From Escherichia phage GEP001: a DNA stretch of 64,000 nucleotides. Within the stretch, counting starts at the first letter, position 1, and every line of letters starts with the position of its first letter. Position numbers and translations under genes: made by a program. The notes beneath the pieces are model-generated. The model saw nothing but the letters and a program-made list of their open reading frames with translations. It did not search any database and was not told the DNA's origin. Of this stretch, positions 2,594 to 61,902 are shown one piece after another. The stretch is taken from sequence record PV173775; one strand, given 5' to 3'.

Positions 2594-4690
2594 ATGATGG
2601 AACTCATTACAGAATTATTTGACGAAGATACTACTCTTCCGATTACAAACTTAAATCCAAAGAAGAAAATACCGCAAATTTTTTCAGTTCATGTTGATGA
2701 CGCAATTGAACAACCAGGCTTTCGTTTATGTACCTATACATCTGGAGGTGATACTAACCGTGATTTAAAGATGGGCGATAAAATGATGCATATTGTTCCT
2801 TTTACATTAACTGCTAAAGGTTCAATTGCTAAATTAAAAGGTCTCGGTCCAAGCCCAATTAATTACATCAATTCAGTTTTTACTGTTGCAATGCAGACGA
2901 TGCGCCAGTATAAAATTGATGCCTGTATGCTTCGTATTCTTAAGTCTAAAACTGCTGGTCAAGCTCGACAAATTCAAGTTATTGCTGATAGACTTATCCG
3001 TAGTCGTTCAGGCGGCAGATACGTCCTTCTTAAGGAACTCTGGGATTACGATAAAAAGTATGCATATATTCTTATACATCGCAAAAATGTATCACTAGAA
3101 GACATTCCAGGAGTTCCAGAAATTAGTACCGAGCTCTTTACTAAAGTTGAATCGAAGGTCGGCGATGTTTATATCAATAAAGATACTGGAGCTCAAGTAA
3201 CTAAAAATGAGGCAATTGCAGCATCTATTGCGCAAGAAAATGATAAACGTTCTGACCAAGCTGTAATCGTTAAAGTTAAAATTTCCCGTAGAGCAATTGC
3301 ACAAAGTCAGTCATTGGAATCTTCTAGATTTGAAAGTGAATTATTCCAGAAATATGAATCTACCGCAGCTAATTTCAATAAACCTGCTACAGCTCCTTTA
3401 ATTCCCGAAGCAGAAGAAATGAAGCTTGGAATTAATTCATTAGCTTCTAAAACTAAGGCAGCAAAAATTATTGCCGAAGGAACCGCAGATGAACTTCACT
3501 ATGACTATAAATTCTTTTCAAAAAGTGATGTTAATGAAGTTTCTGAAAAAATTAAAGATGTAATTCTTAATGCGATTAAAAATGAACCAACTACTTCAAT
3601 AAAATGTTTAGAGAAGTATGCAGCAGCTATTAATAAATTCTTTGAAGAATATAAAGATACTTGGCTTGATAAACATAATAAAACTCGTAAAGGGCAGCCA
3701 GATGAAGTCTGGGAAGAAATAACTAAAAATTCCTGGAACGCAGCAAAAACTAAATTCCTCAAACGAATGATTTATAGCTTTTCTGGAATTGGTGCAGGTC
3801 CAATGATTGATATTACTATTGCCCGTGATGGTTCTAAATATACTCCATCACAAAAGCGCGGCATTAGAGAGTATTGTGGTTCAGGATATACTGACATCAA
3901 TAATCTTCTTTTGGGTCGTTACAATCCAGAACGATATGATGTAATGAGTGAAAAAGAAATTGAATCTGCGATAAATAATTTAGATTCAGCTTTTGAAAAT
4001 GGTGACCGTATACCAGAAGGCATTACAGTTTATCGTGCTCAAAGTATGACTGCTCCTATATACGAAGCGCTAGTTAAAAATAAAGTGTTCTATTTCAGAA
4101 ATTTTGTATCTACTTCTTTAACTCCTATCATTTTTGGACGTTTTGGAATTACACATGCTGGTATCGGTCTTTTAGAACCAGAAGCTCGTAATGAATTAAC
4201 AGTTGATAAAAATGAAGAAGGAATAACTATTAATCCAAACGAAATAAGAGCGTATAAAGAAAATCCTGAATACGTTAAAGTTCAAATAGGATGGGCAATT
4301 GATGGAGCTCATAAAGTTAATGTTGTATATCCAGGAAGTCTCGGAATAGCAACAGAAGCTGAAGTAATTCTACCACGCGGATTGATGGTCAAAGTTAATA
4401 AAATAACTGATGCTTCTAATAATGACGGAACAACATCTAATAATACAAAACTCATTCAAGCTGAAGTTATGACTACGGAAGAACTCACCGAATCAGTCAT
4501 TTATGACGGTGACCGTCTAATGGAAACCGGCGAAGTAGTTGCAATGACAGGTGATATTGAAATAGAAGACAGAGTTGACTTTGCATCATTTGTTTCATCA
4601 AATGTTAAACAGAAAGCAGAATCATCTCTCGGAATTATTGCGTCTTGCATAGATATTACAAACATGCCTTACAAGTTCGTTCAAGGATAA
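2594..4690 (+). CDS. alt: Alt-like NAD-protein ADP-ribosyltransferase, copy 1 (capsid-packaged)
   Basis: 698 aa; N-terminus MELITELFDEDTTLPITNL resembles T4 Alt; C-terminal R / S-T-S / E-x-E ART motifs (TVYRAQ, FVSTSL, EAEVILPRG); late promoter TATAAATA at 2566-2573; true start may be the second Met (2597). Confidence 0.85.
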   Translation: MMELITELFDEDTTLPITNLNPKKKIPQIFSVHVDDAIEQPGFRLCTYTSGGDTNRDLKMGDKMMHIVPFTLTAKGSIAKLKGLGPSPINYINSVFTVAMQTMRQYKIDACMLRILKSKTAGQARQIQVIADRLIRSRSGGRYVLLKELWDYDKKYAYILIHRKNVSLEDIPGVPEISTELFTKVESKVGDVYINKDTGAQVTKNEAIAASIAQENDKRSDQAVIVKVKISRRAIAQSQSLESSRFESELFQKYESTAANFNKPATAPLIPEAEEMKLGINSLASKTKAAKIIAEGTADELHYDYKFFSKSDVNEVSEKIKDVILNAIKNEPTTSIKCLEKYAAAINKFFEEYKDTWLDKHNKTRKGQPDEVWEEITKNSWNAAKTKFLKRMIYSFSGIGAGPMIDITIARDGSKYTPSQKRGIREYCGSGYTDINNLLLGRYNPERYDVMSEKEIESAINNLDSAFENGDRIPEGITVYRAQSMTAPIYEALVKNKVFYFRNFVSTSLTPIIFGRFGITHAGIGLLEPEARNELTVDKNEEGITINPNEIRAYKENPEYVKVQIGWAIDGAHKVNVVYPGSLGIATEAEVILPRGLMVKVNKITDASNNDGTTSNNTKLIQAEVMTTEELTESVIYDGDRLMETGEVVAMTGDIEIEDRVDFASFVSSNVKQKAESSLGIIASCIDITNMPYKFVQG

Positions 4691-14927: not shown

Positions 14928-15142
14928 TGAAATATAGCATTGATGATGCTTTTAATTATGAAGAAGAATTCGAAACGGAAATTCAATTCTTAATGAAAAA
15001 GTATAATCTCAAGCGTCAGGATATTCGTATCCTGGCCGACCACCCATGCGGTGAAGATGTACTTTATATTAAAGGAAAATTTGCCGGATATCTTGATGAA
15101 TATTTTTATTCTAAAGATATGGGCATTGATATGCGCATATGA
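14927..15142 (+). CDS. hypothetical protein (T4 uvsY.-1 position), 71 aa
   Basis: ORF coupled to uvsY stop (ATGA). Confidence 0.6.
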   Translation: MKYSIDDAFNYEEEFETEIQFLMKKYNLKRQDIRILADHPCGEDVLYIKGKFAGYLDEYFYSKDMGIDMRI

Positions 15143-52890: not shown

Positions 52891-53615
52891 ATGAAACTAA
52901 TCTTTTTAAGTGGTGTAAAGCGTAGTGGAAAAGATACTACCGCAGATTTTATCATGAATAATTATTCTGCAGTTAAATATCAACTTGCTGGTCCTATTAA
53001 GGATGCATTGGCTTATGCATGGGGCGTATTTGCAGCAAACACTGACTATCCTTGCTTAACTCGTAAAGAGTTTGAAGGAATTGACTATGATCGTGAGACT
53101 AATTTAAATCTGACTAAATTAGAAGTAATTACGATTATGGAACAAGCATTTTGCTATCTTAATAGTAAAAGCCCAATTAAAGGTGTGTTTGTTTTTGATG
53201 ACGAAGGAAAGGAATCAGTTACTTTCGTAGCATTTAACAAGATTGCTGACGTTATAAATAATATTGAAGATCAATGGTCAGTCCGTCGTCTGATGCAAGC
53301 CCTAGGTACGGATTTGATTGTTAATAACTTCGACCGCATGTATTGGGTAAAATTATTTGCTTTAGATTATCTTGATAAATTTAACTCAGGTTATGATTAT
53401 TATATCGTTCCTGATACTCGTCAAGATCATGAAATGGATGCGGCTAGGGCGATGGGTGCTACAGTAATTCATGTAGTTCGTCCTGGTCAAAAATCCAATG
53501 ATACTCATATTACAGAAGCTGGATTGCCAATTCGTGATGGTGATTTAGTAATTACAAACGATGGTTCTCTTGAAGAACTTTTTTCTAAAATTAAAAATAC
53601 ACTAAAGGTACTATA

Positions 53616-58502: not shown

Positions 58503-59096
58503 ATGAACACACTGAAGAAAATTATTGAGTTTATTCGCACTAAACTTGGTTCTGCTATGGCTAAAAATCTATCTGTTGAAGAACAGTATACTGCTGCAGC
58601 AGCAAAACTTCTTGATAAAATTAAAGACCTAAAAACTGCTTCTGTTAAATCTATTAATGAAGAAAAACGTATTCGTGAACTTGTTATCGAAAAGAATCGA
58701 CAAGCCGAATCAAAAGAGCGTGAAATTCGCAAACTTCTTTCCGAAGGTCAAGATGTAACAATGCATGCTAAACTCGGTTTACTATATCGTCGAACAGCTG
58801 AGCAGTTGACTACTAAGGCTGACGGTTATGCTGAAATGCGAATTGAAATCGCCAAGAAAGTAGTTGAGTTAGATGATGCTCGCCAAGAACTTGCAGTTAA
58901 ATTGGAATATATCCGTGAAACTCGTGCGGCAAATGCCCTTGGAATTAGTACTGCCGATGATGTAGTTGAAATTGCAGCACTGACTAAGGTTGATATTGAA
59001 GATACCCTTGCTCGAGTTGAAACCTTTAATGGTAATATTTCTGGGGTTGAAACTACCTCTGCCGATGTTCAGGAATACATCAATTCTCTGAAATAA
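58503..59096 (+). CDS. coiled-coil protein, 197 aa (possibly PspA/IM30-like)
   Basis: Ala/Glu/Lys/Arg-rich heptad-like sequence throughout; terminator hairpin at 59102-59117. Confidence 0.55.
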
Positions 59097-59101
59097 TGAT
59101 A

Positions 59102-59122
59102 AGGGGCTTCGGCCCCTATTAC
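59102..59122 (+). terminator. hairpin terminator after the coiled-coil ORF
   Basis: AGGGGC-TTCG-GCCCCT then TATT. Confidence 0.5.
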
Positions 59123-59137
59123 TTGGAGTAAATAGGA

Positions 59138-59746
59138 ATGAGAATGCAAAATGATTTCAATTCAATGTTTGAAGAGTTCCAAAGACAGGTTGATGTTCCA
59201 GACCAATTACTGAATGCTCTTAAACGTATGGCAGAAGGACGTAATTACTATTGGGGGTCTTCATATGAAACTGACGAAAGTCTTTCTGGAAGATTTTATA
59301 GAGGTAAAAAGTCTTTAATACGTCCTGGAATACTTATTAACAGTATTGAATCAATTCATTCATTGACATGTGATTTTGATGTTGAATTTACTGATTTCAT
59401 TTCCCCTGAATGGACGGTATGCTATTTAAACGACGATTATGACTATCTTGGCATTTATAGTTTAAGTGACGCGGGGTTTAGACGTAATTTACAAAAGTCA
59501 AATTTATTTTATATTGATACTACAGTAAAATTTCAGGGAAAGAAATATTTCTTTACTCTTATAGTTGACTCTGAAACAAAATATGAAAATAAGCGTATTC
59601 TTAGTAAAAAGAATATCTTAACTATTGTTGATGATCTTTTTGATAAATTCGTAGAAAATCCCAATTTTGAAAGCGATTTATTATTAGAAAAATTTGTTAA
59701 GGAATGTAGAGAATATGTCAAAGCCATCACTATACCTTCCAAGTAA
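59138..59746 (+). CDS. hypothetical protein, 202 aa
   Basis: ORF with SD GGAGTAAATAGGA; no motif recognised. Confidence 0.55.
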   Translation: MRMQNDFNSMFEEFQRQVDVPDQLLNALKRMAEGRNYYWGSSYETDESLSGRFYRGKKSLIRPGILINSIESIHSLTCDFDVEFTDFISPEWTVCYLNDDYDYLGIYSLSDAGFRRNLQKSNLFYIDTTVKFQGKKYFFTLIVDSETKYENKRILSKKNILTIVDDLFDKFVENPNFESDLLLEKFVKECREYVKAITIPSK

Positions 59747-60107
59747 ACCTGTGAAGTATGAACTAAAGCGCCAGATAATTTCTACCGATGTATTAATGGG
59801 TCCTGTGGTAGCTGTATCATTTGTGATTCTGCTAATTGCTGGAATGGTTATAGACGTTATGACTGATATTGAATCTGGTGTAATATTTGGAGCAACACTA
59901 ATTCTTCCAATGATAGTTCCATTTTTATTAGTACCTGTAAATTGGGTAGGATACTGGTATCAAGGAAGACATTATCGTAAACGCGTACGTGAATGGAAAG
60001 CTCAGTGTAAAAAGATTAAAAATGAACACCAGCTTAAACTAGATATGTATGAATTTAACGAAATTATGAAATTTGTTAAGGAATCACGATGCAAAAGCCA
60101 AAACTAA
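59715..60107 (+). CDS. membrane protein, ~130 aa, two TM helices
   Basis: ATG at 59715 (MSKPSLY) with SD AAGGAA inside the upstream gene; hydrophobic VVAVSFVILLIAGMVI and VIFGATLILPMIVPFLLV. Confidence 0.55.
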   Translation: MSKPSLYLPSKPVKYELKRQIISTDVLMGPVVAVSFVILLIAGMVIDVMTDIESGVIFGATLILPMIVPFLLVPVNWVGYWYQGRHYRKRVREWKAQCKKIKNEHQLKLDMYEFNEIMKFVKESRCKSQN

Positions 60108-60451
60108 ATAAAGTCAAATATTCGCTTCCTGAGTCATTTTTAATTTTTGCTGTGGCGTTGGCTGCAGCTCTTGCGGGTAGTCTTTTTGGATTGTTAATTG
60201 ACTGTCTTATTTTAAACATCGATGGCACAGTAAATATAATAGAAGTTTGGAGTGAACTTCGCTATACTAAAATTATTTCATTATTTTCATTCTTTTGTAT
60301 CATTCTATATTTTCATTATGATAATTTTAAAATAAATTGGCAAAGAAAAAAGGATTACAAAATACAATTAAAAGAATATAATAACCATATGTCTTATATT
60401 GAAAATGAATCAATGAAAGAGTTTGTGAGTGATTGTAGGAAAATCAGATGA
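60089..60451 (+). CDS. membrane protein, 120 aa
   Basis: Start with SD AAGGAA in upstream gene; hydrophobic LIFAVALAAALAGSLFGLLIDCLIL and IISLFSFFCIILYF. Confidence 0.55.
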   Translation: MQKPKLNKVKYSLPESFLIFAVALAAALAGSLFGLLIDCLILNIDGTVNIIEVWSELRYTKIISLFSFFCIILYFHYDNFKINWQRKKDYKIQLKEYNNHMSYIENESMKEFVSDCRKIR

Positions 60452-60756
60452 TTTTAAAAACTCGCTGGTATGATTTAGATGATGGGGATGATGGCATTCC
60501 AGTTGATAGAGTTGACTGGAATGGCTGTTCCGAAGATATGAAAAATTTGTTGATTAGGGAGTTTAGAATGGGATATCAACCAGTTAAGCCATCTACTGCA
60601 ACAGATGATAAATTTGTGTGTATTCATAATGGTCGCGCTAAATTAACGAACGCTGATTGGTTCACAGATAAAATTATGATTCTGTGGTATATTATTAGTC
60701 TTCCTGTGACATCATTCGTATTTTACTTTTTTATAAAAATCCAATGGACAGAATAG
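60448..60756 (+). CDS. hypothetical protein with C-terminal TM anchor, 102 aa
   Basis: Start overlaps previous stop (ATGA); C-terminal IMILWYIISLPVTSFVFYFFI. Confidence 0.5.
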   Translation: MILKTRWYDLDDGDDGIPVDRVDWNGCSEDMKNLLIREFRMGYQPVKPSTATDDKFVCIHNGRAKLTNADWFTDKIMILWYIISLPVTSFVFYFFIKIQWTE

Positions 60757-60915
60757 GAGATTGGATTCTTTTAACTATACTTGTTAATATTTTACAGCAG
60801 CAATATTATCTGGAATATGGTATACGTTCATTGAAATGCCATGGCGGCGACGCAGACAACAAAAGATTTTTGATGAAAAGAAATATACTCAAAATTTAAA
60901 TAACTTTATCGCTGA

Positions 60916-61371
60916 ATGCAGGAAATTAAAATGAAAACAATATCAGCTGGTATTATCTTTATGACAGAAGATAAAGATTTATTCATGGGACGGGTTACTG
61001 GTTCTCGTAAGCCTGGAATGATGGCACATCGCTGGGATATTCCAAAGGGCCGTGTAGAAAATTCTGATTTAAGCGCACTAGATGCAGCACGAAGAGAATG
61101 CTTAGAAGAGACTGGTTTTAGCAATTATAATCCAGACCTTCTAGAAGACCTAGGTGTATTTAAATATTCTAGTAATAAAGACTTACAGTTATTTTATTAC
61201 ACGATTCCAGTAGAGCATGAGATGTTTAGAAATTGCCATTGCGAGTCTTATTTTGAAAATAAAGATGGTGTTATGATTCCAGAGATGGATGCTTTTGCTC
61301 TTATTCCTCGCACTCAGTGGCAATATGTGATGGGTCCTTCACTTTACCGAATAATGAACAACCTCTTTTAA
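60916..61371 (+). CDS. nudE: Nudix hydrolase (T4 NudE / e.1)
   Basis: 151 aa; Nudix box G-x5-E-x7-REC-x-EE-x-G in GRVENSDLSALDAARRECLEETGF; alternative start at 60931 has the better SD. Confidence 0.85.
   Translation: MQEIKMKTISAGIIFMTEDKDLFMGRVTGSRKPGMMAHRWDIPKGRVENSDLSALDAARRECLEETGFSNYNPDLLEDLGVFKYSSNKDLQLFYYTIPVEHEMFRNCHCESYFENKDGVMIPEMDAFALIPRTQWQYVMGPSLYRIMNNLF

Positions 61372-61902
<531 letters not shown>

Follow-up and report, generated by a model that had tools for sequence, protein, structure and literature searches.

Two one-base deletions probably cut off the C-terminal third of gene e.2 upstream of nudE in a T4-like phage

The segment at positions 60744 to 60934 of the window, the 64,000-nt stretch of Escherichia phage GEP001 (PV173775) analysed here, is most likely the C-terminal third (60-65 residues) of gene e.2, cut off by two one-base deletions, rather than a separate gene; we put the probability of this reading at roughly 80%. 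The window belongs to a T4-like phage (Tequatrovirus) and is about 97% identical to the closest member of the phage collection, and its e.2 has the sequence background of SP21535-type phages rather than that of T4. The original prediction had placed a fourth small membrane-protein gene, split by a frameshift, between the last intact ORF of a short run and nudE. A frame-disrupted coding sequence is indeed present there, but it contains two breaks instead of one, in an A run and in a T run, and in the intact relatives obtained as sequence records or as proteins, e.2 reads straight through the segment to give one 162-aa protein. Plain intergenic DNA at this position, which would have counted against the prediction, is not what the relatives show: nearly all of those listed keep an intact frame.

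The e.2 locus and its two deletions

The truncated e.2 ORF (60448..60756, on the forward strand, as are all features described below) encodes 102 aa and ends at an early stop, TAG, at 60754-60756. It comprises the N-terminal domain and the first membrane helix, the only one detected by hydropathy in the truncated protein, where it lies at the C-terminal end. The match to the e.2 family extends over both parts: the ORF matches phrog_2203, which represents the full-length form, at E 7e-44 and phrog_35263, the 102-aa form, at E 3e-62, and e.2 homologues carry a precomputed match to PF26896 (Phage_T4_Y06M). The position of the gene, upstream of nudE and the lysozyme gene e, is also conserved. A single ORF of about 160 aa, with a second helix and a FIxECRK tail overlapping the next start codon, is absent here; the coding capacity for it is retained but is split across three frames by the two deletions. 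When two bases are inserted, the ORF becomes 162 aa long and shares 96% identity with P0001, the best family member, and hydropathy then gives two helices, at residues 76-96 and approximately 105-129, with the T-run break inside the second. An AlphaFold2 model built from the e.2 alignment has helices at 73-94 and 103-161, but its confidence is low (mean pLDDT 49.7), too poor for claims about topology or fold.

In almost all relatives listed, e.2 is one 162-aa ORF that reaches the nudE start codon, and in the intact protein the N-terminal domain is followed by two membrane helices and by a basic, conserved tail with the ending FI(T/A)ECRKLK. Shigella phage SP21535 and Escherichia phage EPIMRB01 each have one annotated ORF of 489 nt that begins with e.2 and extends into the nudE overlap, and the two fragments of the window both appear in its translation, in the right order; over codons 1-97, there is not one amino-acid change between the window and SP21535. 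Of the 51 e.2 protein clusters recovered by searching 5.8 billion proteins, 42 were 162 aa long. Homologues with less than 50% identity are full length too, end in FIxxCRK and retain the gene order beside nudE and the lysozyme gene.

The first frameshift site (60735..60739) has five A residues where intact relatives have six, as seen in alignments, in the indel list and in the run lengths, and it separates e.2 from the MDRIGD frame. The second (60790..60793) has four T residues, and every relative examined has five. DNA alignments place single-base gaps exactly in these two runs, and all of the best 60 of 447 records span the two extra bases. At least 22 of 422 records have the five-A state (T4 stocks, RB55, RB59, fPS-2, F1, FN and AV121), and so does one Logan contig, on a non-T4 haplotype. 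Exact-pattern scans of IMG/VR with the five-A and six-A variants returned 0 and 2 T4-like contigs, respectively, too few for counting.

Two short overlapping frames do exist past 60756, at 60744-60899 and 60788-60934, and the ATG of the first, predicted at 60747, actually lies at 60744. The middle remnant of e.2 (frame 0, 60744..60790; MDRIGDWILLTILVNI) corresponds to the predicted periplasmic loop and the first half of the second membrane helix, and its ORF (MDRIGDWILLTILVNIL...) continues out of frame beyond 60790. The last remnant (frame 2, 60791..60934) holds the second half of that helix and the conserved, putatively cytoplasmic tail ending in EMPWRRRRQQKIFDEKKYTQNLNNFIAECRKLK; the open frame from 60788 ends in NFIAECRKLK, and PHROG 35580 (36 aa) represents this displaced C-terminal fragment. 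Intact forms show almost no variation in the tail FIEMPWRLRRQQKI(F/Y)DEKKYxQNLNNFITECRKLK. Two of its otherwise invariant positions are changed in the window (L135R and T156A), an excess of amino-acid changes in the remnant (2 versus 0) that is not significant. The final codons of the last remnant contain the Shine-Dalgarno sequence of nudE (AGGA) and an ATGA stop/start overlap. The NUDIX hydrolase gene nudE itself (60931..61371; Pfam NUDIX, E 1e-13) starts at ATG 60931 with AGGA 7 nt upstream, and an alternative ATG lies upstream at 60916, the annotated lengths being 146 aa and 151 aa. A 32-aa ORF from ATG 60836 (MPWRRRRQQ...), with no Shine-Dalgarno sequence before it, could in principle express the tail.

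Taken as a mechanism, the ancestral e.2 would have encoded about 162 aa. An acidic domain of roughly 75 aa at the N-terminus would be followed by a two-helix membrane hairpin and by a basic, cytoplasmic helix of some 33 aa with the F-I-x-E-C-R-K end, and the stop codon would overlap the nudE start (ATGA). Shortening of the A run from six to five and of the T run from five to four would have shifted the frame twice. The product would be a 102-aa protein whose N-terminal domain is held at the membrane by a single C-terminal helix, while the second helix and the conserved tail would no longer be translated with e.2. The remnant would be a decaying piece of pseudogene, and its 3' end would stay conserved because it carries the ribosome-binding site of nudE. 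We infer that both indels are real mutations rather than read errors and that the e.2 tail is unexpressed in this phage.

Alternative explanations for the broken frame

Both lesions are one-base homopolymer changes, the classic type of sequencing error, and one or both lengths, that of the T run especially, might have been miscalled in a phage that truly carries an intact or T4-like e.2. None of the 447 other records shares the four-T run, every best match listed spans one more base and no record reaches 99% identity to the T-run query; in addition, a lookup across 153 billion gene positions returned no record of the exact 102-aa product. However, when about 60 kb of the window, including some 40 structural and replication genes, was aligned to the closest phage, EPIMRB01, the only uncompensated indels of a length other than a multiple of three in the bodies of conserved genes were the two in e.2, and pervasive sequencing error is therefore unlikely. 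The five-A state has been independently verified in many T4 sequences, Sanger-era records included, the runs are short (4-6 bases), lengths at which miscalls are uncommon, and the two changes at invariant tail positions fit a genuine relaxation of constraint. We thus regard a read error as an unlikely source of the breaks, an isolated miscall at the unique T-run site being the conceivable form of it.

If the segment instead were, or had recently been, an independent small membrane-protein gene, namely the 63-aa MDRIGDW...ECRKLK frame as in X57093, a single frameshift would have inactivated it here, and its translation might have begun at the ATG at 60744, through re-initiation once e.2 had been read. 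All other five-A carriers examined (T4, T4T, fPS-2, F1, AV121 and the Logan contig) keep the 63-codon ORF intact, its ATG lies 13 nt before the e.2 stop in these carriers, two genome records (X57093 and AV121) annotate it, and the halves of a split membrane hairpin could reassemble within the membrane. Nevertheless, this ATG has no preceding Shine-Dalgarno sequence and corresponds to Met100 of the intact e.2 protein, and one helix plus a tail is unlike the two-helix architecture of e.3 and e.4. The split state is also derived and rare: phages LH2, B1.1 and HMD-9 differ from T4 over 106 nt only by one extra base, consistent with six A residues, and the split in T4 thus looks recent. Since the origin would be e.2 in either case, with no separate paralogue involved, a fourth gene is quite improbable.

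Programmed recoding, in which successive -1 slips of the ribosome, one in the A run and one in the T run, would yield full-length e.2, the frameshift setting the ratio of short to long product, is hardly credible. A -1 slip of Lys-tRNA on A-AAA-A would, by reasoning from the sequence, restore the ancestral ...IKNPMDRIGD... exactly, the five-A state recurs on more than one haplotype and the other five-A carriers keep the downstream 63 codons open. Yet the A-run sequence UAUAAAAAUCC has no canonical X-XXY-YYZ heptamer, and two successive inefficient slips would be required, the second with mismatched re-pairing (UUA onto UUU). The sole nearby hairpin begins within the A run and, at -7.4 kcal/mol (z -0.11), is no stabler than shuffled sequence; it was rejected as a frameshift stimulator. 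The combination expected of a -1 site, a slippery heptamer with a stimulatory structure 5-9 nt downstream and conservation of the out-of-frame arrangement, was not found; since the frame is uninterrupted in most relatives, this is not a site at which recoding is conserved. Loss of the e.2 end through two deletions accordingly remains our preferred reading of the locus.

The overlapping genes from e.5 to nudE

The three ORFs predicted upstream of the segment, at 59715-60107, 60089-60451 and 60448-60756, are present exactly as claimed and correspond to e.4, e.3 and e.2, conserved genes that are found in about 500 phage records and are so named in the T4 annotation. They are preceded by the e.5 homologue (59138..59746; 202 aa), a soluble protein identified from its ORF, the T4 annotation and phrog_2607 (E 1e-108); Pfam PF26876 (Phage_T4_Y06P) is found on e.5 homologues, and no membrane helix was detected in e.5 by Kyte-Doolittle hydropathy. 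The e.4 homologue (130 aa) matches phrog_2604 over residues 1-130 (E 2e-70; family PF26873, Phage_T4_Y06O), and the e.3 homologue (120 aa) matches phrog_2330 over residues 1-118 (E 5e-59). Both are supported by alignments and by the T4 annotation, and both combine a full-length match with the same gene order. Relative to e.3 and e.4 of T4 (Y06N and Y06O), the window ORFs are orthologues, with 76-94% identity and equal lengths and overlaps.

As proposed, each ORF begins within or at the end of the preceding gene, e.4 overlapping e.5 by 32 nt and e.3 overlapping e.4 by 19 nt, while e.3 and e.2 share a 4-nt ATGA. AAGGA or AGGA lies 6-11 nt before each ATG, inside the upstream gene, so the starts that overlap upstream stops are each accompanied by a Shine-Dalgarno sequence. 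Translational coupling is therefore plausible, judging from the overlaps and the well-spaced Shine-Dalgarno sequences. A scan for promoters and terminators from e.5 to nudE found nothing above background.

Membrane helices were called by Kyte-Doolittle hydropathy with a 19-residue window and a threshold of 1.6. The predicted hydrophobic helices were borne out in part, with two in e.4 (approximately residues 31-49 and 55-73), one strong helix in e.3 and one in the truncated e.2; a shorter hydrophobic stretch at e.3 residues 62-76 is probably a second helix. Together, the overlaps and the hydropathy support a tightly packed run of small membrane-protein genes. From hydropathy and the positive charges beside the helices, we infer that e.4, e.3 and e.2 would form N-in/C-in hairpins in the inner membrane. 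The e.3 and e.4 proteins share with e.2 two helices, a basic tail and a C-terminal motif of the F-V/I-x-E/D-C-R-K type: the basic C-terminal tail of e.4 ends in FVKESRCKSQN and that of e.3 in FVSDCRKIR. Profile-profile comparisons among the three gave only short matches at the termini (probability 1-8%), and e.3 gave one weak match to the e.4 PHROG (E 0.004). Because the profile matches are short and terminal only, we make no claim of paralogy.

The C-terminal F-[IV]-x-E-C-R-K motif also provides the following gene with its ribosome-binding site and start. The protein ends ...N-F-[IV]-K/x-E-C-R-K-stop, and the DNA reads ...TTT RTT AAG GAA TGY AGR AAA TGA. It is carried by soluble e.5, where the C-terminal FVKECR overlaps the e.4 start, by the membrane proteins e.4, e.3 and e.2, and, in a distant relative, by an additional membrane protein of 101 aa. 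An exact 16-nt repeat, AAATTTGTTAAGGAAT (family D10), occurs at 59690..59705, where it encodes KFVKE at the e.5 end and holds the e.4 Shine-Dalgarno sequence, and at 60069..60084, where it encodes KFVKE at the e.4 end and holds that of e.3. It is a speculative idea, to which we give a low weight, that the motif acts as a dual-coded, portable junction cassette supplying both a C-terminal peptide and, for the gene that follows, the Shine-Dalgarno sequence and ATGA start. Unequal recombination driven by the repeated copies could add, delete or fuse genes here. In T4-type lineages, the short A run of e.2 could similarly serve as a switch, used recurrently, that divides the protein into halves made separately.

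The T4 proteins Imm and Sp are small phage inner-membrane proteins. They are encoded at a different locus from e.4, e.3 and e.2 and showed no sequence relationship to them in family searches. The suggested link to superinfection exclusion or immunity is only an analogy: searches of Pfam, NCBIfam, PADLOC and PDB gave no match to Imm, Sp or any characterised family, and the evidence neither supports nor excludes such a role. In Pfam, neither the Imm family, whose accession we take to be PF14373, nor any other meaningful family matched at E up to 1, and NCBIfam and PADLOC gave no exclusion or immunity match above noise. A literature search on e.2 to e.6, including the Petrov 2010 review, found nothing on function. 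The e.4, e.3 and e.2 proteins, encoded in the early-gene region, may be accessory and dispensable, with the conserved cytoplasmic tails as the parts through which they would act. The contigs behind three apparent chimeras among the homologues (P0149, P0195 and P0206) measure only about 0.5-0.7 kb, and misassembly is the probable cause; a 2100-aa protein with 7 repeats (P0199) is a spurious repeat match; all four were set aside.

Precedent in T4 and implications

The e.2 gene of T4 (Y06M_BPT4, PF26896) occupies the same locus, between e.3 and nudE, and members of the family are 89-96% identical to the window protein. T4 has the same five-A frameshift and the same 102-aa product ending in ...FFIKIQWTE. 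In the window, the additional T-run deletion breaks the downstream 63-codon frame that is open in T4. The split has been recorded before: in phage T4T (GenBank HM137666), e.2a and e.2b are annotated as "probably split of e.2 conserved hypothetical protein", and X57093 annotates an "orf 102aa" and an "orf 63aa". The displaced e.2 C-terminus before nudE was thus recognised there as here, but those records describe one break, whereas the window has two and the 63-aa ORF itself is destroyed. Because a similar one-deletion split is already annotated in T4, the finding is real but ordinary, and its significance for biology at large is little.

For this phage family, the result amounts to a correction of annotation. 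In T4-type genomes, the "gap" of about 160 nt ahead of nudE consists of e.2 coding sequence that has been displaced. The e.2 of the T4 reference, at 102 aa, is a truncated allele; most relatives have the protein in its full form of 162 aa, and this is the right construct for studying e.2. T4, this phage, N-terminally shortened 122-aa forms and the e.4::e.2 fusion of UFV provide natural domain-deletion alleles, and the natural truncations suggest that e.2 is dispensable under laboratory conditions. Finally, the C-terminal motif that doubles as a ribosome-binding site offers a small, testable lead on how the accessory genes of T4 are packed and reshuffled.

Gene order and the three predicted membrane-protein genes

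The phage is T4-like, and the plus strand of the window corresponds to the minus strand of T4. Following the T4 annotation (KJ477685), the region carries e.6 (58503-59096, 197 aa) and, on the plus strand, e.5 (59138-59746, 202 aa), e.4 (59715-60107, 130 aa), e.3 (60089-60451, 120 aa), e.2 (60448-60756, 102 aa) and nudE (60916 or 60931 to 61371, 151 or 146 aa), the last lying immediately upstream of the lysozyme gene e (61408-61902). The segment 59694-60935 matched 504 phage records by megablast, nearly all of them Tequatrovirus, with best identities of 94-95%, and the nearest genome over 25 kb was that of Escherichia phage EPIMRB01 (~97%). A GC-rich palindromic hairpin, AGGGGCTTCGGCCCCT, is located between e.6 and e.5 (59099-59119; the scan returned it for the minus strand only), and T4 record L13089 shows a putative stem-loop at the corresponding place, behind msp3, its counterpart of e.6.

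The original prediction described three consecutive ORFs encoding hydrophobic helices, each starting inside or at the stop of the preceding gene, and this was borne out for e.4, e.3 and e.2, with overlaps of 32, 19 and 4 nt and with AAGGA or AGGA 6-11 nt 5' of every start codon. By Kyte-Doolittle analysis, e.4 has two membrane helices, the 102-aa e.2 has one at its C-terminal end, and e.3 has one strong helix, to which inspection of its sequence added a shorter hydrophobic stretch at residues 62-76. The three ORFs showed very strong, full-length PHROG matches, and recent Pfam families were found on homologues of e.4 (Phage_T4_Y06O), e.2 (Y06M) and e.5 (Y06P). The first membrane helix of e.4 varies in length among relatives: EPIMRB01 and other phages with a 126-aa e.4 have 12 nt (4 codons) fewer there (window 59823-59837).

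The e.2 gene and its two deletions

The 160 nt between 60756 and nudE had been taken for a possible fourth gene of the run, split by a frameshift and represented by two short reading frames. Both frames are present (the ATG of one at 60744 rather than 60747) and the idea of a frameshift holds in essence, but the segment belongs to e.2 and is not a separate gene. In Shigella phage SP21535 and EPIMRB01, e.2 is annotated as one ORF of 489 nt with a stop codon overlapping the ATG of nudE. Both window fragments appear in its translation, ...FFIKNPMDRIGDWILLTILVNIFTAAILSGIWYTFIEMPWRLRRQQKIFDEKKYTQNLNNFITECRKLK, in the same order and without a change of frame. In DNA alignments with relatives, exactly two length differences were seen in e.2: AAAAA at 60735-60739 where intact relatives have AAAAAA, and TTTT at 60790-60793 where all others have TTTTT. 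The latter falls in the middle of the second membrane helix (approximately residues 105-129), and once both bases are restored the ORF encodes 162 aa, with 96% identity to the best-matching member of the family. The object is thus e.2, a gene already known, bearing a type of split that is also known and, in addition, a private deletion. The start of nudE is annotated in two ways in relatives, as 151 aa (MQEIKMKT..., 60916) or 146 aa (MKT..., 60931); the latter seems more likely, since its ATG has AGGA 7 nt upstream and an ATGA overlap with the intact e.2.

The split is already on record for T4. The early entry X57093 lists two overlapping reading frames, "orf 102aa" and "orf 63aa"; in the T4T genome (HM137666) the pair e.2a and e.2b carries the remark "probably split of e.2 conserved hypothetical protein", and PHROG 35580 (36 aa) is the e.2b fragment of T4T, whereas the reference T4 annotation leaves the gap before nudE empty. 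What the window adds is the second lesion.

Distribution and origin of the e.2 states

Among the homologues found by searching 5.8 billion proteins, the 162-aa form accounted for 42 of 51 clusters, the others including two of the 102-aa form, four of a 122-aa form starting at Met41 and one fusion. Homologues below 50% identity are 157-195 aa long; every one combines the N-terminal domain with two helices and with a tail that ends in FIxxCRK. In the two loci fetched, nudE and the lysozyme gene follow downstream of them. The long form is therefore ancestral. The downstream reading could in principle be recovered by ribosomal recoding, as a -1 slip on A-AAA-A would give back the ancestral e.2 frame. 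However, the canonical heptamer is absent, the sole local hairpin does not exceed shuffled sequence in stability (z -0.11), e.2 is in frame in most relatives, and the window would require two consecutive slips; we therefore regard recoding as very improbable.

A 101-nt query across both runs matched 447 records, and each of the best 60 spans 103 nt. The five-A state was found in at least 22 of 422 records, comprising 16 T4/RB55/RB59 records together with fPS-2, F1, FN and AV121, and also in a Logan contig whose background is SP21535-like rather than T4. Over 106 nt, a single extra base, consistent with a sixth A, is all that separates LH2, B1.1 and HMD-9 from T4. From this distribution, the A-run deletion looks recent and recurrent, or spread by recombination. 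With a 74-nt query over the T run, every best match listed spans 75 nt and no record reached 99% identity; the T-run deletion thus appears private to the window so far. The downstream 63 codons are open in all other five-A carriers examined and broken only here.

A lone sequencing error at the T run might still account for that deletion. Approximately 60 kb of the window was aligned to EPIMRB01 and every gap listed: apart from the two in e.2, indels within conserved-gene bodies either have lengths divisible by three or occur as compensated pairs where the sequences diverge, and the remaining 1-2-base indels are intergenic, at gene junctions, in a tRNA spacer or 18 nt before the end of a small ORF. 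Such a pattern is in keeping with real evolution and speaks against homopolymer miscalls on a wide scale. Relative to EPIMRB01, the small conserved ORF, near uvsY, has a 2-nt insertion at 15133 within the palindrome GATATGCGCATATG, which would alter the last few residues of its product; the gene 1 (dNMP kinase) homologue carries a 12-nt in-frame insertion (53204-53215). Compared with SP21535, e.2 codons 1-97 show three synonymous and no amino-acid changes, and the displaced C-terminal remnant (60744-60934) shows three synonymous and two amino-acid changes (L135R and T156A), at positions invariant across nine diverse intact e.2 sequences. This suggests relaxed constraint on the remnant, although the numbers are too small for proof.

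Gene-end motif, predicted topology and probable dispensability

When the whole 64-kb window was translated in six frames, the pattern F-[IV]-x-[ED]-C-R gave three matches, where shuffles predict 0.09. Each match lies at a C-terminus, one in e.5, one in e.3 and one in the e.2 remnant; e.4 carries the variant FVKESRCK. As N-F-[IV]-x-E-C-R-K, the motif occupies 59690-59710 (e.5), 60069-60084 (e.4, variant), 60422-60439 (e.3) and 60905-60922 (e.2), and in fetched relatives 815-859, 3270-3313 and 4450-4492 of L013 and 2625-2669 of L012, and it includes the Shine-Dalgarno sequence and ATGA start belonging to the gene that follows. An exact 16-nt repeat, AAATTTGTTAAGGAAT, lies directly ahead of the e.4 and e.3 starts. 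The motif is kept in T4-like contigs below 50% identity; in one distant contig it closes e.5, e.4, e.3, e.2 and an extra 101-aa membrane protein, and its DNA, TTTATTAAGGAATGYAGAAAATGA, comprises a Shine-Dalgarno sequence, a spacer and an ATGA stop/start, so that the motif appears to have two uses, as a peptide and as a signal starting translation of the following gene. It may represent a dual-coded junction cassette, and that it also promotes recombination is speculation.

Searches of Pfam, NCBIfam, PADLOC and the PDB linked none of e.2, e.3 and e.4 to a characterised family, and the AlphaFold model of e.2 was too weak for a fold search. Judging from hydropathy and positive-charge distribution, we infer that the three proteins are N-in/C-in hairpins with basic cytoplasmic tails. 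The tail is likely their working end, because it is the most conserved part in all three families. A role in superinfection exclusion is conceivable, but the family searches lent it no support.

Truncation of e.2 also takes other forms. In four proteins (P0044, P0045, P0047 and P0048) a 122-aa e.2 is called from Met41, implying that the first 40 codons are damaged or lost while the membrane hairpin and tail are intact, a truncation opposite to that of T4. Escherichia phage vB_EcoM-UFV10 (L008, 2501-2821) encodes a fusion protein of 106 aa in which residues 1-31 of e.4 run into residues 86-162 of e.2, with the join inside the first membrane helices (GPV | TSFVFYFF). It takes the place of the greater part of e.4, the whole of e.3 and the N-terminal domain of e.2; an identical protein bears the name of UFV05 and occurs on five contigs. 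The recurrence of such natural truncations (the five-A split, the Met41 forms and the UFV fusion deleting e.3) argues that the phages can do without e.2, at least as far as propagation is concerned.
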